DNA of 64,000 nt from Alphaproteobacteria bacterium. Its GTDB lineage: Bacteria; Pseudomonadota; Alphaproteobacteria; Bin95. The stretch is from contig CAXXWS020000002.1 in assembly GCA_963665325.3 (NCBI GenBank), forward strand, positions 832,001 through 896,000, written 5' to 3'. The notes beneath the pieces were generated by a model. That model was given only the letters and a program-made list of their open reading frames with translations, was not told the origin of the DNA and made no database searches. This document shows, one piece after another, positions 1,329 to 58,172 of the stretch; within the stretch, counting starts at the first letter, position 1; the number at the start of each line of letters is the position of its first letter. Position numbers and translations under genes: made by a program.

Positions 1329-4300
1329 TCAAGGCATATATGGCGCAAGGCAGCTTTCGGGAATCGGCATCAGCAGGGGCTCGTCGGTCCAGAGCAGGGC
1401 CGCGCGCACCGGACGCTCGGGCCGCATCTGCCGCAAGAGTGCGACATAGCGCGCCAATTGCCGCAGATAGCCCACGGGCGCGTCGCTGGGACCGGCCGGC
1501 GGTGCGCGACCGCTCTTGAAATCCACGATCAGGGTTTCCTCCGGCAAGATCGCCAGCCGGTCGATGCGTGCGTTCGCGATCTCGCCGCCGATTCGGCCGA
1601 CCAGCGGCGCTTCCGCCCGGCTGCCGGGGCCGAACACGCGGCGGAAGACGGGATCGTCGAGCACGGCCAGCGCCTCGCGGGCCGTCGCCTCGGCATCGTC
1701 CGCCAGCTCCGGCTCGGCGGCGAGGAACCTGCGGGCGGTTTCGAGCCGCCGGTCGGGCGCAACATCGGGCAGCAACTCCAGCAGCTTGTGGATAGCCTGC
1801 CCCCGCCGGAACCGGCCGGCGGACCTGCCGCGCAGCGGGGAGGCGACCGTGAACGCTTCCTCGTCGCCACCGGGTGGCGCCGCGATCCGACCCGGCGCGG
1901 CGAGCCGCCGCGCCCAGCCAGGCAGGGGAGGGAGAGACCCGCGGTCCCCGGCGGGCTTCTCCGCTTCCGCTTCGGCCGCGCGCCGTTCCATGACCAGAAG
2001 GGCCTCGCCGAAGTCCGGGTCCTCTTCTTCGCTCAGAAGGTCCTGCAGCTTGCCCGACACGACGTTGTACCAACAGTCGTCGGGCAGCTTCCTGCCGCTG
2101 TTGTTCCAGCCGCAGACCACCAGCCGGTCGGCCGCACGCGTCATGGCGACATAGAGCAGGCGTCGATATTCCGCCTCGTCCTCCTCGTCGGCCCTGTCCA
2201 GCAATTCCCTGGAATACGGGTCGATCCGGTCCCTGTTCGTGGATGGCGGCCAGAGCAGTAGATCGCCGTCGCGGTAAAGGGTCCGGCGGCGGCTCGGATG
2301 GGCCGGGGCGGCGGCGGTGTCCGGCAGGATCACCACCGGCGCTTCCAGCCCCTTGGCGCCGTGGACGGTGCTCACCCTCACCTCGTCACGGTCCCGCTGG
2401 TCGAGTTGCCGCTTCACCTCCGCCTCGCCGCTCCGCAGCCATTGCAGGAAGCCCTGAAGGCTCGGCGGGTGGCGGCGCTCATAGTCGAGCGCGGCATTCA
2501 GGAACTCGTCTATCGGGTCGTTGGCCTCCTCGCCGAGGCGCGCCGCGATCTTCCGGCGGAGGCCGCCTTCCGCCAGCAGGTCCGCAAAGAAGGCATGGAC
2601 GCCGACATAGTCGGCCTTGCCGAGCAGCGCGCTGAGCGCCTCGAAGCAGGGACCGAAGCGCGCCGTCTCCCGGCACTTGCCGAGCGCGGCCCAGAGTGTG
2701 CCCTTCCGGCCGTGGGCCAGCTCGAACAGCGCCTCGTCGTCGAACCCGAACAGCGGTCCTTTCAGCACCGTCGCGAGCGTCAGGTCGTCATCCGGCAGCA
2801 GGACGAAATCGCCGATGGCGGCGAGGTCCATCACGGCAAGTTCGTCGGTCAGCGTCATGCGGTCCACGCCGGCGACGGGCACGCCCGCCTGCTTCAGCGC
2901 CGCAATGACGCGGGGGATGAAGGCCCGGCCCGAGCGGCGCGGGAGCAGGATCATGATATCGCCCGGCCGCATGGGCCGGCCGCCGGACGCTACCGGCTCG
3001 CCGTGCGTGAGCCAGCTTGCAATGCGCCGGGCGACACGGTCGGCAAGGGCGGTTTCTGCAGCGTCCTCGCGGAGATAGTGAGTGGGCGGCTCGAACGGGT
3101 CTCCCGCTTCGCCCTTCTCGCCCATTTCAAGCGGCCAGACCTCGACGCGGCCGCCGGCGCCGCTGCGGCTCGGCTTGTGGACGGGCGCCGGGCCTTCAAG
3201 GCCGAGTCCGTGCTCGCCGGAGAACACCGCGTCCACGGCTTCCAGAAGGACGGGCGCAGCGCGGAAGGAGACCTCCAGCGGGACATTCTCCCAGCGCCGC
3301 CCGGCGTCCAGCGCACGCGTCTCGAAGCGCTGGCGCATCTCCTCGAATTTCTTCGGCTCAGCGCCCTGGAAGCGGAAGATCGACTGCTTAGGGTCGCCCA
3401 CGGCGAAGAGCGTGCGCGTCTCTTCGCTCGCACCCTCGCCGGCGAAGAACTCCTGCGTCAGCGCCCCGACAAGCTCCCATTGCGTGGGGCCGGTGTCCTG
3501 CGCCTCGTCGATCAGCACATGGTCGATGCCCCGGTCCAGCTTGTAGTGTACCCAGGCGGCGGAATAGGTGCGCAGCAGGCTGAGCGCGCGTTCGATCAGG
3601 TCGTCGTAGTCGAGCAGCCCGGCCCGGCCCTTGGACCGCCGGTATTCGCTGTCCACGGCCTCGCCAAGCGCCAGCGCCGCCTCGGATGCCCTGAGCGTGG
3701 CTTCGATCCGGCGGTATTCGTGCAGCCGCTCGATCCGCTTGCGCTCGTCGGTCAGCAGGCCCGGCAGGGCTTCGCCTCCGGCAAGCTTCGCCGAACCGAT
3801 CCTGTCCCGCCGCTCGCCGTCCGACTTGAAGAAGACCTTGTAGACCTCCTCGATATCGTCATTGGAAGGCTCGTCGGTCTTCGCCCAGTGCCGCAGCCTT
3901 GCGGCGTGCTGCTTGTCGGTTACGCCCCCGCCCGCCAGGACAGACGCGGCTTCCCGGAGCGCCTTTATCCCTTTCTTGGTACGCTTGGGAACGTCCGGCA
4001 GGACCAGCTTCGCTTCCAGCGCGGCGAGGGCTTGCGGACCGAAGGCGCTGCGATTGCCCAGCAATTCGGCGATGAAGGCGCGGATATTGTATTCCGACAG
4101 ATTGTCGGCGATCTCGGCGATGGCTTCGTCGATTTTTTCGTCATGCCGTTCCAGCACGGCGTCCCGCGCGCCCGCCTGTCTCGCCTGTGTCTCGCGCTCG
4201 TCGGCAAGCTGGAACCAGGGCGAGATTCCAGCCTCGATGGGGAAGCGCCCGAGCAGGCCCTGGCAGAAGGCGTGGATCGTGTCGATGCGAAGCCCGACCG

Positions 4301-4661
4301 GCGCATCGACCGTGCGGGCGAAGAGACGTCTTGCGCGGTTCTTCGTTTCTCCGTCCGGGGCCCTGGCGCCCAGCCGGGCCAGAGCCGTGTCGAGCTCTTC
4401 GTCCGGGGCCGTTGCCCAGCCGGCCAGCTCGCGCTCTATGCGGATGCGCATTTCGGCAGCGGCGGCGCGGGTGTAGGTGAGGCAGAGGATGCGTTCCGGC
4501 AAGACGCCCCGGAGCAGCAGCGCCAGCACACGGTCCGCAAGCACCTTGGTCTTGCCGGAACCCGCATTCGCGTCCACCCAGGCGGACGCCTCCGGATCGG
4601 CGGCCCGGCGCTGCTGTGCGGTCGCGGCCTCGACGGCCGGGTTCAGACCCGCCTGGACCAT
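1329..4661 (-). CDS. addA: double-strand break repair helicase-nuclease AddA
   Basis: Walker A ANAGSGKT, DEAQDT, STVHGAKGLE, LLYVAMTRA and C-terminal RIDRL...IVDFKS nuclease motif. Confidence 0.95.
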   Translation of the reverse strand: MVQAGLNPAVEAATAQQRRAADPEASAWVDANAGSGKTKVLADRVLALLLRGVLPERILCLTYTRAAAAEMRIRIERELAGWATAPDEELDTALARLGARAPDGETKNRARRLFARTVDAPVGLRIDTIHAFCQGLLGRFPIEAGISPWFQLADERETQARQAGARDAVLERHDEKIDEAIAEIADNLSEYNIRAFIAELLGNRSAFGPQALAALEAKLVLPDVPKRTKKGIKALREAASVLAGGGVTDKQHAARLRHWAKTDEPSNDDIEEVYKVFFKSDGERRDRIGSAKLAGGEALPGLLTDERKRIERLHEYRRIEATLRASEAALALGEAVDSEYRRSKGRAGLLDYDDLIERALSLLRTYSAAWVHYKLDRGIDHVLIDEAQDTGPTQWELVGALTQEFFAGEGASEETRTLFAVGDPKQSIFRFQGAEPKKFEEMRQRFETRALDAGRRWENVPLEVSFRAAPVLLEAVDAVFSGEHGLGLEGPAPVHKPSRSGAGGRVEVWPLEMGEKGEAGDPFEPPTHYLREDAAETALADRVARRIASWLTHGEPVASGGRPMRPGDIMILLPRRSGRAFIPRVIAALKQAGVPVAGVDRMTLTDELAVMDLAAIGDFVLLPDDDLTLATVLKGPLFGFDDEALFELAHGRKGTLWAALGKCRETARFGPCFEALSALLGKADYVGVHAFFADLLAEGGLRRKIAARLGEEANDPIDEFLNAALDYERRHPPSLQGFLQWLRSGEAEVKRQLDQRDRDEVRVSTVHGAKGLEAPVVILPDTAAAPAHPSRRRTLYRDGDLLLWPPSTNRDRIDPYSRELLDRADEEDEAEYRRLLYVAMTRAADRLVVCGWNNSGRKLPDDCWYNVVSGKLQDLLSEEEDPDFGEALLVMERRAAEAEAEKPAGDRGSLPPLPGWARRLAAPGRIAAPPGGDEEAFTVASPLRGRSAGRFRRGQAIHKLLELLPDVAPDRRLETARRFLAAEPELADDAEATAREALAVLDDPVFRRVFGPGSRAEAPLVGRIGGEIANARIDRLAILPEETLIVDFKSGRAPPAGPSDAPVGYLRQLARYVALLRQMRPERPVRAALLWTDEPLLMPIPESCLAPYMP

Positions 4662-50437: not shown

Positions 50438-50451
50438 GCCGTGCGCCGGAG

Positions 50452-50480
50452 TGTATAGCGGCGGCGGGGCGGGAGTTCAA
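50452..50480 (-). promoter_or_regulatory. putative tRNA-Pro promoter
   Basis: Minus strand TTGAAC-N17-TATACA, 14 nt upstream of the tRNA 5' end. Confidence 0.55.
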
Positions 50481-50528
50481 CGGGGTGCGGCGGCAGGAAG
50501 CGCCGGTAACGCGGCGGAGAGGGACGGC

Positions 50529-53500
50529 ATGAGCGCAGGCTGGCAGTTCTGGATCGACCGGGGCGGAACCTTCACCGACATTGTGGCGCGCGCGCCGGAT
50601 GGCGGCTTCGTCACCCGCAAGCTGCTGTCCGAAGCCCCTGAGCATTATGACGACGCGGCTCTTCAGGGCATTCGCGACATTCTGGGCGCGGAGGCGGGCG
50701 CGCCGATCCCGGCAGACCGCGTCGAGGCGGTGCGGATGGGCACTACCGTCGCGACCAATGCGCTGCTGGAACGCAAGGGCGAACGCACCCTGCTGGTGGT
50801 CACGCGAGGCTTCGCCGACCAGCTCCGTATCGGCTACCAGAACCGCCCGCGCCTCTTCGACCTCAATATCCGTCTGCCGGAAATACTCTACGAGGCGGTC
50901 GTCGAGGCGGACGAACGCATGGGTCCGCATGGCGAGGTCGTGCGGCCGCTGGACGAGGCGAAACTGGAAGCCGACCTTGCGCGGGCGCATGGAGAGGGTT
51001 TCCGTGCGGTCGCCATCTGCCTGATGCACGGCTACCGCCACACCGCACACGAAGCTGCGGCGCACGCCATCGCGCGGCGCGCGGGCTTCGAGCAGGTTTC
51101 GGTGAGCCACATGGTCTCGCCGCTGATGAAGTTCGTCTCGCGCGGCGACACCACGGTGGTGGACGCCTATCTCTCCCCGATCCTGCGCCGCCATGTCGAG
51201 CGCATGGCGGCGTCGCTCGGCGGGGCGCGGCTGCTGTTCATGCAGTCCAACGGAGGACTGGTGGATGCGCGCCGGTTCCAGGGTAAGGACGCCATCCTCT
51301 CCGGGCCCGCAGGCGGCATCGTCGGGGCGGTCGAGACCGGGCGCTCGGCGGGGTTCGAGCGCATTATCGGCTTCGACATGGGCGGCACCTCGACCGATGT
51401 CTCGCACTATGCCGGCAGCTATGAGCGCGCCTTCGAAACCGAGGTTGCCGGCGTGCGGATGCGCGCGCCGATGCTCGACATCCACACCGTCGCGGCCGGC
51501 GGCGGCTCGATCCTGCATTTCGACGGCCGGCGCTTCCGGGTCGGCCCCGACAGCGCCGGCGCGGACCCCGGCCCCGCCTGTTACCGGCGCGGCGGCCCGC
51601 TGACGGTTACCGACTGCAACCTGATGCTCGGCCGGCTGATGCCGGAGTTCTTCCCGCGCATTTTCGGGCCGGGGCGCGACGAGACGCTCGATGTCGAGGT
51701 CGTGCGCCGCGAATTCGCCACGCTCGCCGGACGGATCGGCGACGGGCGCACGCCAGAAGCGGTCGCCGAGGGTTTCCTGCGCATTGCGGTCGAGAACATG
51801 GCCAACGCCATCAAGCGCATCTCCATCGAGCGCGGCCACGATGTGACCGACTATGCGCTCAACTGCTTCGGTGGAGCGGGCGGCCAGCATGCCTGCGCGG
51901 TCGCCGATGCGCTCGGCATCGAAACCGTGCTGATCCATCCCTTTGCGGGCGTGCTCTCCGCCTATGGCATGGGCCTGGCCGATATCCGGGTGCTGCGCGA
52001 GACGGCGGTCGAAGCGCCGCTATCCGAGATCGGGGAGGCGGAAGCGGCGTTCGAGCGGCTGGATGCGCTTGCCCGGGACGAGATGGCGGCGCAGGGCGTG
52101 CCGCCCGAGCGGGTCGAGGCCTTCCGGCGGCTTCTTGTGCGCTATGACGGCACCGATTCGCCGCTGACCGTGGCGTTCGGCCCGGAAACGGCCGTGCAGG
52201 CCGCCTTCGAGGACCAGCACCGGCAGCGCTTCGGTTTCGTCTCGGAGACCAAGGGGCTCGTCATCGAGGCAGCGGCGCTGGAACTCGTCGGGCGGACGGA
52301 GCGGGCAGGGGAACCCTCAATTGCCGGTGACGGAGGCAACCCCGATCCTGCTGCCCGGACAGAGCTGTTCGCCGACGGCCGGATGCAGAAGGCCGCGGTC
52401 CATATCCGTGCGGAGCTCAGTCCCGGAGACCGTGTGGCCGGACCGGCGGTGCTGGTGGAGGACACCGCGACGACAGTGGTCGAGCCCGGATGGGAGGCGC
52501 GGCTTACCGAGAGTGGCAATCTCGTGCTGGAGCGCGTTCTGCCGGCCAGGCGCGAGGCGGCGACCGGCACCGAGGCGGACCCGGTGCTGCTGGAGGTGTT
52601 CAACAATTTGTTCATGTCGGCGGCCGAGCAGATGGGCGCCACCCTGGCTGCGACCGCCTCCTCGGTGAATATCAAGGAACGGCTGGACTTCTCCTGCGCC
52701 GTGTTCGATCCCGACGGCGAACTGGTCGCCAACGCGCCGCATATTCCGGTCCATCTGGGTTCGATGTCGGAATCCGTGCAGTCCATCATCCGCTCCCGCG
52801 CCGGGACGATGGCGCCGGGCGACGTGTTCATGCTGAACGCGCCCTACAATGGCGGCACGCACCTGCCGGATGTGACGCTCATCACGCCGGTCTTCGCGCC
52901 GGACGGCGGGGCGATCTGGTTCTATGTCGCAAGCCGCGGCCACCATGCCGATATCGGCGGCATCACGCCGGGTTCCATGCCGCCTGACAGCCGCCATATC
53001 GAGCAGGAGGGCGTGCTGTTCGACGATGTGCGGGCGGTGCGCGGCGGGCGTTTCCTGGAGGAAGAGGTGCTGGCGCTGCTGGAGGGTGCGCGCTACCCGG
53101 CGCGCAACCCGGCCGAGAACCTCGCCGATTTCCGCGCCCAGATCGCCGCCAACCAGAAGGGCGTCGAGGAACTGCACCATATGGTCGCGCATTTCGGCCT
53201 GGATACTGTGCAGGCCTATATGCGCCATGTGCGCGACAATGCCGAGGAAAGCGTGCGCCGGGTGCTGGACGCGCTCCGGCCGGGCAGCTTCGAGATCGAG
53301 ACCGACCAGGGCTGGCTCATCGCGGTGGATGTCTCCATCGACAAGGCGGCGCGCCGGGCGGTGCTGGACTTCTCGCGCTCCTCCGATCAGGTGGATGGCA
53401 ACTTCAATGCGCCGACCGCCGTGTGCATGGCGGCCGTGCTCTATGTCTTCCGCTGCCTCTGCGGCGTGGATATTCCACTCAATGCCGGCTGCCTGAAGCC

Positions 53501-54110
53501 GCTGGAAATCCGCGTGCAGGAGCGGTCGATCCTGCGCCCGCATTTCCCGGCGGCGGTGGTGGCCGGCAATGTCGAGACCTCGCAATACATCACCGACACG
53601 CTGTTCGGCGCGCTGAATGCCGTGGCGGAATCCCAAGGGACGGTCAACAATTTCACCTTCGGCAATGCGCGCTACCAGTATTACGAGACCATCTGCGGCG
53701 GCTCAGGCGCGGGCGACGGTTTCGATGGGGCGCACGCCGTGCATGTCCACATGACCAATACCCGCCTCACCGACCCGGAAATCCTGGAGTGGCGCTACCC
53801 GGTGCGCCTGGAGAGCTTCGAGATCCGGCGGGGCAGTGGCGGCGAGGGGCGCTGGCGGGGCGGCGACGGCGTGCGCCGGCGGGTCCGCTTCCTGGAGCCG
53901 ATGACGGCGGCGATCCTCTCCAGCCACCGCCGCGTGCCGCCCTATGGCCTCGCCGGCGGCGGCAGCGGGGAACCCGGCCGCAACAGCGTCGTGCGCACGG
54001 ACGGCAGCACCGAGACCCTGCTCGGCGCCGACCGCACCGAAATGGCCGCCGGCGACATCTTCGTCATTGAGACACCGGGAGGCGGCGGCTGGGGGACGCC
54101 AGAGGGGTGA
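50529..54110 (+). CDS. fused 5-oxoprolinase (hydantoinase A+B, OplA type)
   Basis: [49 protein letters not shown]. Confidence 0.93.
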
Positions 54111-54150
54111 GTGTGGCGGTTGTCTGCCTTGCTAACGATTTGGAAGTAGG

Positions 54151-54280
54151 CAATGGGCAGAAAGTTGCAAAAATGATTGGAAATGGGCAAGAAATGGCAT
54201 AAGGGGGAATAAATGGGCAAAAAATGGCAGAGATGGGCAGAAAATGGCGATAGTGGATGAGAATGGGCAGAGAATAGCCC
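54151..54280 (+). repeat. degenerate 10-bp tandem repeat array (13 units, consensus AAATGGGCAG)
   Basis: caatgggcag aaagttgcaa aaatgattgg aaatgggcaa gaaatggcat aagggggaat aaatgggcaa aaaatggcag agatgggcag aaaatggcga tagtggatga gaatgggcag agaatagccc. Confidence 0.9.
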
Positions 54281-54304
54281 AATCTGGACCGAATTGCATT
54301 TGAG

Positions 54305-55819
54305 ATGGACGACTTCCAAGGCCGTCCCTTGCCGGAACCGGCCGAACCGGCCGGTTACTCATGGCTGATCGATTGTTACGGCCTCAATTTGCCTTTACCC
54401 CCGAGACTGGTCGCAGTTGCCCGGCGCGACCACCCGCACACGACGCCGGATTGGTTACTGTTGCGGCCTTCCCGCCGCCCGCAGCCGACGCTGGCGGAGC
54501 ATCTGGCGTTCGCCCTCCGGCGGGAGGGGATCGATCTTTCCGTGTTGGACGCCCTGTTCGCAAGCGTGCCCGCCGGGGAGGTGGCAGAAGTGGTGCGCGC
54601 GCAGCCGAGCAGCGTGTTATCCCGCCGACTCTGGTTCGTCTACGAGTGGCTGACCGGCGAGCGGCTCGACCTGCCGGACGCCCAGGCGGGGCGCTATGTC
54701 CCGGCAGTGGACACCCGTCTGCAGTTCGCGTTGTCCGAAGGCGAGCGTTCGCGACGCCACAAGGTCTTCAACAACCTGCCCGGCACGCCTGCCTTCTGCC
54801 CTATGGTGCGGCGCACGCCGGCGCTCGATGCAGTTCGAGCCCTGCAACTCGATGCGCGCGCCCGCGATACCGCCGGCCGGGTGCATCCCGACCTGATGGC
54901 GCGCGCGGCAGCGTTCCTCCTGCTCAACGACACGAAGTCGTCCTTTGCGATCGAGGGCGAACGGCCATCCAGTGCCCGCGCCGCCCGATGGGGCCGGGCA
55001 GTCGCCGAGGCCGGACAGCGAGCGTTCGACCGCGCCGAACTGGAGCGCCTCCAGCGCATCGTTATTGAGGATGCGCGCTTCGTGCGGCTCGGCCTTCGCG
55101 ACGAAGGCGGCTTCGTGGGGCTTCATGACCGGATCGACCGCTCGCCGCTGCCCGACCATATCAGCGCCCGTCCGCAGGATTTACCGGGCCTGGTGGACGG
55201 GATCGCCGCCTGGTGCGGCCGCGCCGCGGCTGGCGGTCTGGACCCGGTCGTCGCGGCGGCCGCGGCGGCTTTCGGTTTCGTCTATGTCCATCCGTTTGAG
55301 GACGGGAACGGCCGCATCCACCGCTGGCTCATCCACCATGTTCTGGCGGCGGCGGGCTACACCCCACCCGGCGTCGTGTTCCCCGTCAGCGCGGCCATTC
55401 TGAGCCGTATCGAGGACTACCGCCGGGTGCTCGAATCCCGCTCATCCGCCCTGCTGCCGTTCATCGACTGGCGGGCGACCGAGAACGGCAATGTGGAGGT
55501 GACAAACGACACGGCCGCCTTCTACCGCTATTTCGACGCGACGGCCCATGCAGAGTTCCTCTACGAGTGCATCGAACGGACGGTGGAAGAGGACCTGCCG
55601 CGCGAAATCCGCTTCCTCATCGCCTTCGACCACTTCGCCGCCGGCGTGAAGGACATGGCGGACATGCCCGACCGCCGGGTGGAGCAGCTGCGCGGCTTCC
55701 TGGAGCAGAATGACGGCAGGCTTTCCGCCCGCGCCCGCAGCCGGGAGTTTGCGGCCATGACCGACGAAGAGGCCGCCCGCGTCGAGCGGCTTTATGCGGA
55801 AAGCTTCGGGGAGCCGTAA
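54305..55819 (+). CDS. Fic family protein (504 aa, class II architecture)
   Basis: Catalytic HPFEDGNGRIHR and upstream inhibitory-type SFAIEG motif. Confidence 0.92.
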   Translation: MDDFQGRPLPEPAEPAGYSWLIDCYGLNLPLPPRLVAVARRDHPHTTPDWLLLRPSRRPQPTLAEHLAFALRREGIDLSVLDALFASVPAGEVAEVVRAQPSSVLSRRLWFVYEWLTGERLDLPDAQAGRYVPAVDTRLQFALSEGERSRRHKVFNNLPGTPAFCPMVRRTPALDAVRALQLDARARDTAGRVHPDLMARAAAFLLLNDTKSSFAIEGERPSSARAARWGRAVAEAGQRAFDRAELERLQRIVIEDARFVRLGLRDEGGFVGLHDRIDRSPLPDHISARPQDLPGLVDGIAAWCGRAAAGGLDPVVAAAAAAFGFVYVHPFEDGNGRIHRWLIHHVLAAAGYTPPGVVFPVSAAILSRIEDYRRVLESRSSALLPFIDWRATENGNVEVTNDTAAFYRYFDATAHAEFLYECIERTVEEDLPREIRFLIAFDHFAAGVKDMADMPDRRVEQLRGFLEQNDGRLSARARSREFAAMTDEEAARVERLYAESFGEP

Positions 55820-55840: not shown

Positions 55841-56965
55841 CTACAATGCGGCGTAGCGCCTGAGGTGGTAGTCGTTGTCGCCGAAGCTGCGGTCGATCAT
55901 GGTGAGGCGCTTGAAATAGTGGCCGGCGGCATATTCGTCGGTCATGCCGATGCCGCCGTGAAGCTGGATCGACTGCTGGCCGACATAGCGGGCCGACTTA
56001 CCGATCTGCACCTTGGCGGCGGACATCGCCTTCTTGCGAGCGTCCGCATCGTCCTCGTCGATCCGCATCGCTGCCATCATCGCCATGGACTTCGCCTCCT
56101 CATGCGCGATGAACATATCGACCATGCGGTGCTGCAGGACCTGGAAGCGCCCGATGGGCTGGCCGAACTGCTCGCGCGTCTTGAGGTATTCGAGCGTCAT
56201 GTCGTTCAGCGTGCCCATGAGGCCGACCGCCTCCGCCGACACCGCCGCGATTGCCCGGTCCACAACTTCCTCGACGGTGGCGAGACCGCCATCCACGTCG
56301 CCCAGCACGCCCCGGGCCGGTGTGTTGTCGAGCGTCACCTCACCGGCCCGGAGGCCGTCGGCGGTCGGATAGCCTCGCACGGAAAGACCGGCTGCGTCCT
56401 TGTCCACCAGGAAGAGGGTGATGCCTTCTGCATCGCGGGAGCCGCCAGCGGTCCGTGCCGACACCACGAACCGGTCTGCGGTCGGGGCGCCGAACACGAC
56501 GCTCTTCATGCCGGAGAGTTTGTAGCCGCCATTGGACTTCGCGGCCCGGACCTCGACGTCCTGGAGGTTGTAGCGCGCCTGGCGTTCGGCGAAGGCGAAG
56601 GCGAGCTTGCACTGGCCTTCCGCGACGGCAGGCAGGATTTCCGCCTTCTGCTCGTCGGAGCCGGCAAGCGTAACCGCGCCGCCGCCCATGACCACGGTGG
56701 ACAGGTAAGGCTCGGCGACCAGGCCGTTGCCGATGGCCTCCATGACGACCATCGTCTCGACGCCGGACATGCCGAGGCCGCCATGCTCCTCCGGGAAGGG
56801 GATGCCGAGCCAGCCGAGCTCCGCGAATTGCCGCCAGTGCGCGTCGGCATAGCCCTGCTCGGTAGCCACCAGCTGGCGCCGCTGCTCAAAGCTGTAGTTC
56901 TCGCGCACGAAGCGCTGCACGCTCTCCTGCAGGAGTTGCTGGTCCTCGGAATAGTCGAAGTCCAT
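55841..56965 (-). CDS. acyl-CoA dehydrogenase (PimD-like small subunit)
   Basis: MDFDYSEDQ, REQFGQPIGRFQVLQHR, QLHGGIGMTDEY. Confidence 0.88.
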   Translation of the reverse strand: MDFDYSEDQQLLQESVQRFVRENYSFEQRRQLVATEQGYADAHWRQFAELGWLGIPFPEEHGGLGMSGVETMVVMEAIGNGLVAEPYLSTVVMGGGAVTLAGSDEQKAEILPAVAEGQCKLAFAFAERQARYNLQDVEVRAAKSNGGYKLSGMKSVVFGAPTADRFVVSARTAGGSRDAEGITLFLVDKDAAGLSVRGYPTADGLRAGEVTLDNTPARGVLGDVDGGLATVEEVVDRAIAAVSAEAVGLMGTLNDMTLEYLKTREQFGQPIGRFQVLQHRMVDMFIAHEEAKSMAMMAAMRIDEDDADARKKAMSAAKVQIGKSARYVGQQSIQLHGGIGMTDEYAAGHYFKRLTMIDRSFGDNDYHLRRYAAL

Positions 56966-57002
56966 GGGCCTGTTCCCGTTCCTTCCCGTCGTAGGATGCC
57001 GC

Positions 57003-58172
57003 CTAGAGGCCGAGCACGGCCTTGGCGATGATGTTGCGCTGGATTTCGTTCGAGCCGCCGTAGATCGACGCCTTGCGCCAGTCGAAATAGAAGGCTGTGG
57101 CGCCGGCCGCCTCGCTCGGGCCGACCGGCGGCTCGTTCCAGCCCTGGGCGAGCGCGCGCTCAATGAAGGGATGCGCGAAATAGCCCTGCGCCTCCATCAG
57201 CAACTCCATCACATCCTGCTGGATTTCGGTGCCGCGGATTTTCAGCAGTGAGGCTTCCGGCCCGATCTCGTCGTCGGCTTCCTTCGCCGCCACCATGCGC
57301 AGGAAGGACCAGCGTAGGTCCTCCAGCGCCGCTCCGGTCTCGGCGATGCGGCGCGAGAAGTCCGGGTCGCGGCCGTCGTCGATCTCCTCCAGCCGGTCGA
57401 GCCGCTGGCGGCAGAGGCCGATGCCGGCCGTGCCGGAGCGTTCGTGGCCGAGCAGGTATTTGGCGCAGGTCCACCCCTTGCCCTCGTCGTAAATGCGCTC
57501 GGAGACCGGCACGCGGACATCCTCGAAGATCACCTCGTTGAAGTCCGACATGCGGCTGAAGCGCTCGATCGGGCGCACCGTCACTCCGGGGAGCGACATG
57601 TCGATCAGCAGGACCGAGATGCCGTCCTGCTTCTTGCCGGAACTGTCGGTGCGCACCAGCGCGAAGCACCAGTCCGCCCAGTCGGCATTGGTCGTCCAGA
57701 TCTTGCGCCCGTTGACGATGTAATGGTCGCCGTCGCGCACCGCCTGGCAGCCGAGGGAAGCCAGGTCCGAGCCCGAGTTCGGCTCCGAATAGCCCTGGCA
57801 CCAGATGACCTCGCTGGAGAGGATGCCCGGCAGGTGGCGCATCTTCTGCTCCTCCGTGCCGAAGGCGAGCAGTACCGGCCCGACCATTTGCGGACCGAAG
57901 GGCACCGGCCCCGGCGCGCAGGCGAGGTAGCTTTCCTCCTCGAAGATGAACTTCTGCGACGGCGTCCAGCCCGGTCCGCCGGCGGCCTCCGGCCAGTTGG
58001 GACACATCCAGCCCCTGTCGGAGACCGTGCGCATCCAGTCCACGACATCCCCGCGCGTGAGCAGGCTGCCGTCTCTTACCTTGTCGCGCACGTCCTTGGG
58101 GAGCCGGTCTCCAATAAAGGCGCGTACCTCTTCGCGGAAGGCGCGGTCTTGCTGTGCTATTTCCATGTGCAT
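57003..58172 (-). CDS. acyl-CoA dehydrogenase (PimC-like large subunit)
   Basis: WCQGYSEPNSGSDLAS, SIYGGSNEIQRNII. Confidence 0.88.
   Translation of the reverse strand: MHMEIAQQDRAFREEVRAFIGDRLPKDVRDKVRDGSLLTRGDVVDWMRTVSDRGWMCPNWPEAAGGPGWTPSQKFIFEEESYLACAPGPVPFGPQMVGPVLLAFGTEEQKMRHLPGILSSEVIWCQGYSEPNSGSDLASLGCQAVRDGDHYIVNGRKIWTTNADWADWCFALVRTDSSGKKQDGISVLLIDMSLPGVTVRPIERFSRMSDFNEVIFEDVRVPVSERIYDEGKGWTCAKYLLGHERSGTAGIGLCRQRLDRLEEIDDGRDPDFSRRIAETGAALEDLRWSFLRMVAAKEADDEIGPEASLLKIRGTEIQQDVMELLMEAQGYFAHPFIERALAQGWNEPPVGPSEAAGATAFYFDWRKASIYGGSNEIQRNIIAKAVLGL

Follow-up and report, generated by a model that had tools for sequence, protein, structure and literature searches.

A 64,000-nt stretch of alphaproteobacterial DNA (the window of this study) contains thirteen 10-bp repeat registers directly in front of a fic gene, and it is suggested here that this array is probably the built-in control region of that gene. 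The array (54151-54280) is the strongest 10-bp periodicity of the 5.58-Mb genome and is unique within it. In the genus, it persists across the four species with the long type of spacer at fixed offsets of -120, -90, -70 and -40 from the fic start codon, and homologues of the same Fic family in other phyla carry direct repeats with a similar spacing. A more specific proposal, that the array is a co-inherited operator lying on one face of the DNA, to which the C-terminal domain of Fic would bind so as to repress its own gene cooperatively, is one that we consider to have about an even chance of being correct.

The repeat array upstream of fic

A spacer of 194 bp separates the stop codon of an oxoprolinase gene (50451-54110) from the fic ATG at 54305. 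The registers of the array are A+G-rich, and the last of them ends 24 nt 5' of the ATG. The heptamer ATGGGCA occurs at 54153, 54183, 54213, 54233 and 54263, which accounts for five of its nine copies in the window, and AATGGCA is found inside the array at 54193 and 54223. Base identity within the array is 0.50 at a lag of 10, 0.50 at a lag of 20 and 0.63 at a lag of 30, as compared with 0.22 and 0.17 at lags of 5 and 15, and not one of 5000 mononucleotide shuffles attained the lag-10 value. When the whole genome of 5,579,361 bases was scanned with a sliding frame of 130 bp, no other locus reached as much as 80% of the periodicity score of the array. In a comparison with 3000 random 310-bp samples of the genome, the score is 0.355 for the array and at most 0.166 for the samples. 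When up to one mismatch is allowed the unit pattern has four matches genome-wide, all inside the array; across 401 genomes of the class, only scattered single occurrences were seen elsewhere among the matches listed. Tandem Repeats Finder picks up 54180-54248 and not the rest (period 10, 6.8 copies, 65% matches, score 34), a weak call that fits the divergence of the units.

The array is best read as five bipartite units of about 20 bp, spaced by 30, 30, 20 and 30 bp, with degenerate 10-bp fillers. Each unit (rAATGGGCAgAAAATgGC) consists of a G-rich core, an A-tract and TGGC. An earlier note on this sequence had described the thirteen 10-bp units, their position, content and distance from the ATG, together with a higher-order period of 20/30 bp, and had called for a search for further copies in the genome. 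The description holds, and the search led back to the array alone. The note had also set aside a CRISPR array, which we likewise reject as the units abut without spacers.

Over 54100-54299 the GC content is 0.44-0.48 (genome about 0.67), with a GC skew of +0.5 to +0.59 and a strong purine skew. Three minus-strand open reading frames (ORFs) of 76, 72 and 125 aa overlap through the array (53942-54362); they were rejected as genes, the two that were put to Pfam both being without a hit, and long minus-strand ORFs are to be expected here as this strand is almost free of A and stop codons are rare. A sigma-54-type sequence, TGGGCAG-N4-TTGCA at 54154-54169, was noticed by eye only and was dropped as it has no repeat in the orthologues.

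Independent sequencing runs contain the array at unchanged length. Contigs from runs X5, X7 and X9 carry it with no differences, while run X10, which is from another study, differs by substitutions only, seven of them inside the array, with no insertion or deletion. The array is therefore not an assembly artefact, which had been a concern of the earlier note, nor, in this small sample, is it length-variable. The copy-number variation of a variable-number tandem repeat or contingency locus was not found in these four runs from three studies, a small sample in which contigs drop rare variants. The units are diverged, as the earlier note had said in arguing against a fresh repeat of that kind.

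Conservation in the genus

Relatives were searched for in 16 other genomes of the same genus (G numbers below; L numbers denote loci). An intact fic orthologue with 82-90% identity is present in nine of the 16. In G008 (L041, C3:1049500-1054000) some 2.8 kb of inserted DNA (approximately 1589-4378 of that locus) interrupts the gene at about codon 32, and the upstream array is intact. In G012 (L023/L038) fic survives as several fragments, one with a stop, and in G013 (L024) as an in-frame remnant made up of the start and the last 52 codons; both have kept the spacer. G014 has only a 58%-identical fic copy in another context, and G001, G003 and G015 have no fic.

An AT-rich, purine-rich spacer is found at all 13 genus loci with fic or a remnant of it, and at 11 of these the 10-bp periodicity lies above the 99th percentile of background (0.125), L019 and L038 falling below. 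The long type of spacer is that of the window's genome, G008, G005 and G007. GRGCAR cores lie at -150, -120, -90, -70 and -40 in the first of these, at -120, -90, -70 and -40 in G005 and G007, and at the same four positions plus -19 in G008, the flanking proteins being 86-90% identical. The short type, of about 105 bp, is found in seven genomes and has a -35/-10-like pair (by eye and unproven) followed by 10-bp units around GGCAGA.

In the fic-less G003 the oxoprolinase gene is followed by a GC-rich spacer and an unrelated gene, and in the fic-less G001 the 119 readable bases downstream of it are GC-rich; neither has the array, which therefore goes with fic (the G015 contig ends within the oxoprolinase gene). 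The idea in the earlier note that array and fic form one unit is supported by the 13 loci with such a spacer and fic or its remnants, by the two that have neither, and by the phased repeats of homologues in other phyla. Its further idea, an insertion of the two between oplA and pimD-like genes, is not: an oxoprolinase gene, fic and an acyl-CoA dehydrogenase gene follow one another at every locus with readable flanks, and no oxoprolinase-dehydrogenase junction without fic was seen in the genus, so that a recent insertion is not shown.

Runs X5 and X9 also hold a second form of the locus in which 54094-54504 is replaced by 321 other letters, and run X7 has a separate loose end at 54094 that is similar to the spacer of the short type in a sister species. 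From this it seems that the samples are not of a single member of the genus.

Phased repeats in distant homologues

Species-representative genomes were scanned for relatives; 562 were reported and the best 80 retained. Comparisons were made on 42 loci, namely the 39 of these that are close to full length (L048-L085 and L087, without L086, which is a C-terminal fragment from the end of a contig) and L020-L022. The homologues are 31-60% identical to the window's protein and come from Proteobacteria, Bacteroidota, Nitrospirota, Actinomycetota, Planctomycetota and others. Forty loci of other Fic families (L088-L127; 118,706 bases) served as controls.

None of the 39 distant loci has a 10-bp tandem array as strong as that of the window (maximum 0.234, median 0.078). 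Between -200 and +30, the coding strand has 79 copies of the hexamer TTTTCA, in 26 of the 42 loci; the opposite strand has 6, and the counts are 3 for a coding control, 4 for downstream and 6 for far-upstream sequence. An iterated matrix led to the consensus TAAyCGTTTTTCAnG with 136 instances; variants exist in subfamilies. In the loci as a whole (172,112 bases) the matrix has 175 plus-strand matches, 136 of them within -200 to +100, and 57 minus-strand matches that are evenly spread. The matches peak at +12, -8, -37, -58, -88, -108 and -138 relative to the codon aligned to the first methionine of the window's protein. Among 102 successive spacings, 36 are exactly 20 bp, 33 are of 29-31 bp and 14 of 49-52 bp, and this quantisation in helical turns argues for the recognition of double-stranded DNA. 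In most homologues the real ATG, at -36, lies inside a copy and two further copies fall in the first 16 codons, the family sites extending from about -140 over the start codon and into the first codons. At least three same-strand matches within 160 bp were found in 27 of the 42 loci, in none of the 40 control loci and nowhere in the window's genome.

Five full-length homologues on viral contigs were outside the training set, and one of them has a single match near the start. Three near-identical homologues among the five (L140-L142) have a variant motif, with spacings of 50, 51, 30, 30 and 20 bp in L140 and fewer matched sites in L141 and L142, and one viral-contig homologue has two sites 20 bp apart. 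Differing motifs in the same architecture are also present in L080/81, L073/74/76 and L065/66. The earlier note had proposed examining homologues for upstream repeats and for their co-variation with Fic. The first part of this had a divided outcome, as phased direct repeats with subfamily-specific motifs are present and the 10-bp tandem array is absent, the sites being 20/30 bp apart; on the second, the arrays of other phyla do carry motifs particular to their subfamilies and have no recurrent neighbour gene, and in this they show the co-variation that the note had wished to see examined.

No recurring family was found among the 77 nearest flanking ORFs of the homologues, which leaves Fic as the one protein that is constant throughout. 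Among the neighbours are a C5 methylase, HsdR, an OLD-type ATPase, AbiEii, ArdC, integrases, transposases and housekeeping genes. Flanking genes are often those of defence or mobile elements, which as evidence of phage protection is only suggestive. In L066, a Bacteroidales scaffold, another repeat of about 20 bp occurs twice in direct and once in inverted orientation some 150-60 bp upstream of the fic homologue, farther 5' than the usual sites.

The arrays of the genus and of the family have in common direct repeats, 20/30-bp spacing, an extent from about -150 to the start and a copy-like unit over the ATG. A family-type match at +12 is found at 11 of the 13 genus loci (6.6-14.3 bits) and is missing from the window's genome and G013. 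The only inverted repeat at the window's fic locus brackets the whole array: the right arm sits at the place of the +12 match, and the left arm overlaps a weak remnant resembling the T-rich family motif at 54134-54146 (by eye; below 4 bits with the family matrix). L019 and L038 have one minus-strand match to the family matrix each, near -84. That the genus units might be the reversed family motif was rejected, the window's array having no minus-strand match of at least 4 bits, and the string TTTTGCC common to the genus units and the L140-type variant is too short to count.

The Fic protein and its domains

On its motifs, the 504-aa product is a class II Fic protein and a predicted AMP-transferase, as the earlier note had also concluded. 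The Pfam Fic domain (PF02661) is matched with 49.3 bits, the cut-off being 24. HPFEDGNGR is at residues 329-337, with H329, P330, D333-R337 and R340 invariant in 40 sequences, and SFAIEG lies N-terminal to the Fic core on the same chain, with S213, I216 and E217 invariant in the same 40. Class II is defined, in the available part of the source, by an inhibitory motif (S/T)xxxE(G/N) on the same chain and N-terminal to the core (PMC9755527).

The protein matches the PADLOC family PDC-S24 over residues 13-502 (model positions 4-490 of 497; E 3e-188, 624.7 bits). PDC-S24 is listed in PADLOC as a single-gene phage-defence candidate, which is a computational candidate. With the PADLOC SoFic model the match is confined to the core (E 1.3e-14), and with the NCBIfam SoFic equivalog NF046030 the core match scores 24.2 bits against a cut-off of 550, so that the protein does not qualify as a SoFic orthologue.

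A structure model was built from a 40-row alignment, from which L065 (internal stop) and the partial L069, L075, L078, L081, L082, L085 and L087 were dropped. It aligns up to residue 504 with Coxiella Fic2 (8cil; Z 23.7, rmsd 3.5, 297 aligned) and SoFic (3eqx; Z 22.6, rmsd 6.0, 289 aligned), and in the model the C-terminal domain aligns with the winged-helix domain of SoFic and Fic2. Only residues 163-441 align with 7xux, in which the Fic core has a similar fold (Z 20.6, rmsd 2.7, 223 aligned); the title and release date of this entry are our sole grounds for regarding it as CccR. The N-terminal domain (residues 1-175) as modelled resembles the C-terminal domain of AbiEi proteins, a resemblance and not a membership: among 48,161 chains its best match was 1zel (the C-terminal part of Rv2827c; Z 7.0, rmsd 4.9, 154 aligned) and its second 6y8q (S. 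agalactiae AbiEi; Z 4.0), and Foldseek gave the same two entries with non-significant E-values.

In the window's protein the putative recognition helix of the C-terminal domain has the sequence LSARARSREF; homologues with TTTTTCA sites have LS[NKRQ]RAR[ED]KEF, two variant groups LSARKRS.HF and another FPKRRRE.F. The motif variant may track the C-terminal helix; this is suggestive, and it is confounded by descent.

A proposed operator and the alternatives to it

We propose that the array is a cis-regulatory region that travels with the single-gene Fic module PDC-S24. Direct-repeat sites placed whole helical turns apart (20/30 bp) would all face one side of the DNA, and Fic could bind them cooperatively through its C-terminal winged-helix-like domain. 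The resulting autorepression would keep the expression of an AMP-transferase that may be toxic low and switch-like. In the genus the sites have another, purine-rich sequence, a GRGCAR core followed by an A-tract, and in the window's genome an extra unit and the 10-bp fillers produce the near-perfect 10-bp period. This proposal draws on the helical-turn spacing, the specificity of strand and position, co-inheritance without a constant partner, the winged-helix-like domain and the precedent of CccR.

Several observations weigh against it. On the coding strand the units of the genus are rich in purines and the motifs of the other family loci in T, and at 11 of the 13 genus loci the family matrix has no upstream match of at least 4 bits on either strand; in spite of this discrepancy of sites there is only a modest difference in the C-terminal helix. 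The 42 loci served both to train the matrix and to count its matches, so that the weight must rest on the TTTTCA counts and the comparison with control loci. Related loci are not independent samples. Eight of the 42 loci have no matrix match, although several of these show other direct repeats in the same layout. A promoter-like site was found in one of three distant loci scanned, and the placement of sites relative to a promoter is therefore largely by eye (TAnnnT between paired copies in 5 of 12 family loci and TTG upstream in 5 of 12, both unproven); in the window, a scan of 53900-54500 found neither a sigma-70-like promoter nor a terminator. Direct repeats fit a symmetric dimer less simply than do the inverted repeats of CccR. 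Lastly, the C-terminal domain of SoFic is reported, in the portion of the paper at hand, to regulate toxicity and not to bind DNA (PMC12249575).

It is also conceivable, although unlikely, that the array is read by its shape, as curved AT-rich DNA whose phased A/T-tracts recruit an H-NS-like or MucR-like silencer or modulate the promoter, and so quieten an acquired toxic gene. Phased A-tracts give DNA curvature. The array has A/T-tracts of 3-6 bases at the helical period, evident from the sequence and the autocorrelation at lags of 10, 20 and 30. These tracts recur every 10 bp in a patch of 44-48% GC within a 67% GC genome, and what the genus and family arrays share is chiefly the phased A- or T-tract and not sequence or strand. 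However, the family motif has near-invariant positions outside its tract (C 0.97, A 0.79, A 0.84), in the genus it is the G-rich core GRGCAR rather than the A-tract that holds the fixed positions, and the strand bias of TTTTCA is 79:6; neither curvature nor a generic silencer acting across phyla requires bias or invariant positions.

A bolder version of the operator, which we think rather improbable, is that an oligomer of Fic wraps about 150 bp of its own array, the complex being at once the repressor and the off-state of the enzyme, and that phage-induced changes release Fic for AMPylation. If this were true, release could be triggered by loss of supercoiling, degradation of DNA or competition for sites, and the array would be the integral sensor of a one-gene defence system. 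The motif would then co-evolve with the C-terminal helix across phyla, and the purine-rich genus array would represent a re-invented specificity.

That the repeats act instead in RNA is improbable. A purine-rich, unstructured 5' leader, or read-through from oplA, could bind a translational regulator or tune ribosome loading, and the strand-specificity of the element is consistent with this, as are the family copies over the start codon and in the first codons, which would place them in the mRNA, the promoter and terminator scan already mentioned and the lack of any Shine-Dalgarno-like sequence visible by eye 5' of the fic ATG. The 20/30-bp quantisation is, however, a property of the DNA helix, and family copies are found also upstream of the likely -35/-10 region. 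Folding of 54141-54330 was no better than that of shuffled sequences (z +0.71, with 156 of 200 shuffles at least as stable), and an Rfam scan of 53900-54500 found no family, the best E-value being 1.1 and far under the gathering score. The ten upstream ATGs of the window are not kept in the short-type genus spacers, and ATG-led mini-ORFs in the array were rejected for the same reason.

Little probability also attaches to a neutral origin, in which slippage or unequal exchange amplified a functionless 10/30-bp unit in a tolerant spacer. The spacer does vary from about 105 to 195 bp between species, with long and short types in the genus, and fic itself is decaying in places (the insertion in G008, the pseudogene in G012 and the deletion in G013). 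Yet the units, while diverged, have their cores at identical offsets in four species, no length variation was found in the four runs, 11 of the 13 genus loci are periodic, and unrelated phyla have the same 20/30 architecture. An iteron or parC-type array serving replication or partition of the secondary replicon C3 (1.34 Mb), on which the window lies, is very improbable: the repeats are helix-phased and direct, but none of the four adjacent genes is rep or par (they encode an oxoprolinase, Fic and a pair of acyl-CoA dehydrogenases), in other taxa the array accompanies fic on chromosomes as well as on viral contigs, and it is a single copy in the genome.

Features of the locus and its neighbours

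Coordinates are collected in Table 1. As listed, the minus-strand acyl-CoA dehydrogenase ORFs at 55841-57163 and 57003-58172 overlap by about 160 bases; the true start of the former is probably further in, as its Pfam N-terminal domain begins only at residue 72. In G005 (L011) and G006 (L014) the oxoprolinase match covers 61 of the last 400 residues (329-389, 75-80% identity), and because only these residues match, the gene upstream of fic seems to be truncated or replaced there.

Table 1. Positions of the array, the fic gene and adjacent features in the window
Feature	Position	Strand	Basis
Repeat array	54151..54280	+	periodicity, genome scan, independent runs
Unit 1, core GGGCAG at -150 from ATG	54151..54170	+	
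Unit 2, core at -120, position common to G008, G005 and G007	54181..54200	+	
Unit 3, core at -90	54211..54230	+	
Unit 4, core at -70	54231..54250	+	
Unit 5, core at -40	54261..54280	+	
Inverted repeat, left arm, 15 nt, 80% complementary, brackets array	54140..54154		
Inverted repeat, right arm, fic start codon and first codons	54305..54319		
fic gene, 504 aa, class II Fic, PADLOC PDC-S24 family	54305..55819	+	structure model pLDDT 92.9
N-terminal domain, residues 1-175, AbiEi C-terminal-domain-like	54305..54829	+	fold pLDDT 95.3
Inhibitory-helix motif SFAIEG, residues 213-218	54941..54958	+	
Fic catalytic motif HPFEDGNGRIHR, residues 329-340	55289..55324	+	
C-terminal three-helix domain, about residues 445-504, with arginine-rich LSARARSREF	55637..55816	+	aligned with SoFic/Coxiella Fic2 winged helix
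Upstream neighbour, fused hydantoinase A/B-type 5-oxoprolinase, oplA-like	50451..54110	+	
Downstream neighbour, acyl-CoA dehydrogenase, convergent with fic	55841..57163	-	

Relation to known systems

Iterons, parC and operators of the Lrp/MetJ type likewise consist of multiple direct repeats on one helical face, which implies cooperative protein binding; unlike iterons and parC, the present array has neither rep nor par beside it, and it belongs to a single enzyme gene, whose start codon it overlaps in the family. AbiEi proteins autoregulate by cooperative binding to repeats. The N-terminal domain of the window's protein resembles the C-terminal domain of the AbiEi antitoxins Rv2827c and S. 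agalactiae AbiEi, but the match excludes AbiEi's own N-terminal winged helix, a Z of 7 is in the tool's middling range, and the locus has no AbiEii toxin partner. With SoFic the protein has in common a class II inhibitory helix, the Fic core, the C-terminal winged-helix-like domain and a single-gene defence context. It differs in its additional N-terminal domain of 160 residues and in its score below the SoFic equivalog cut-off, and the accessible portion of the SoFic report gives no phased upstream array (PMC12249575).

The closest precedent is CccR of Yersinia pseudotuberculosis. According to the part of the report available, this Fic protein with a C-terminal helix-turn-helix represses its own promoter through two repeats, as established by electrophoretic mobility shift assay, footprinting and reporters (PMC9755527). 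As here, a Fic enzyme is joined to a C-terminal helical domain of DNA-binding type, and whole helical turns lie between the repeats of its own promoter. As far as that text goes, CccR is of 380 aa and without the N-terminal AbiEi-like domain, and its operator is of two inverted 10-bp repeats 26 bp apart, whereas here there are five to eight direct repeats spaced by 20/30 bp and reaching into the coding region; the one inverted repeat at the window's fic locus, as it brackets the whole array, does not make a two-inverted-repeat operator of the CccR type. For CccR binding has been demonstrated, and for the present protein we infer it.

A full-text literature search, excluding subscription-only papers and supplements, found no description of an array in the PDC-S24 family, and the term PDC-S24 itself was not found in any paper. 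The earlier note had known of no description of such an element. This stands for the array of the Fic family, but not for the wider idea, since a self-regulating Fic whose C-terminal domain binds DNA has been published in CccR (PMC9755527, as available to us).

Significance

The array and fic together may be a toxin-like or defence gene that regulates itself through an operator of several sites, tied to an uncharacterised and widespread family, a view for and against which we see the chances as about equal. It would extend the sole published case of a self-regulating Fic, CccR (again on the available part of PMC9755527), to a family that is much larger, more widely distributed and different in the logic of its operator. 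The genus offers a natural experiment in this respect, since it has the same geometry (20/30 bp, fixed offsets) with a different site sequence. PDC-S24 is without a described mechanism or regulation, and the array offers a concrete way to test how a system of one gene, which may be toxic to its own cell, is silenced and switched on.

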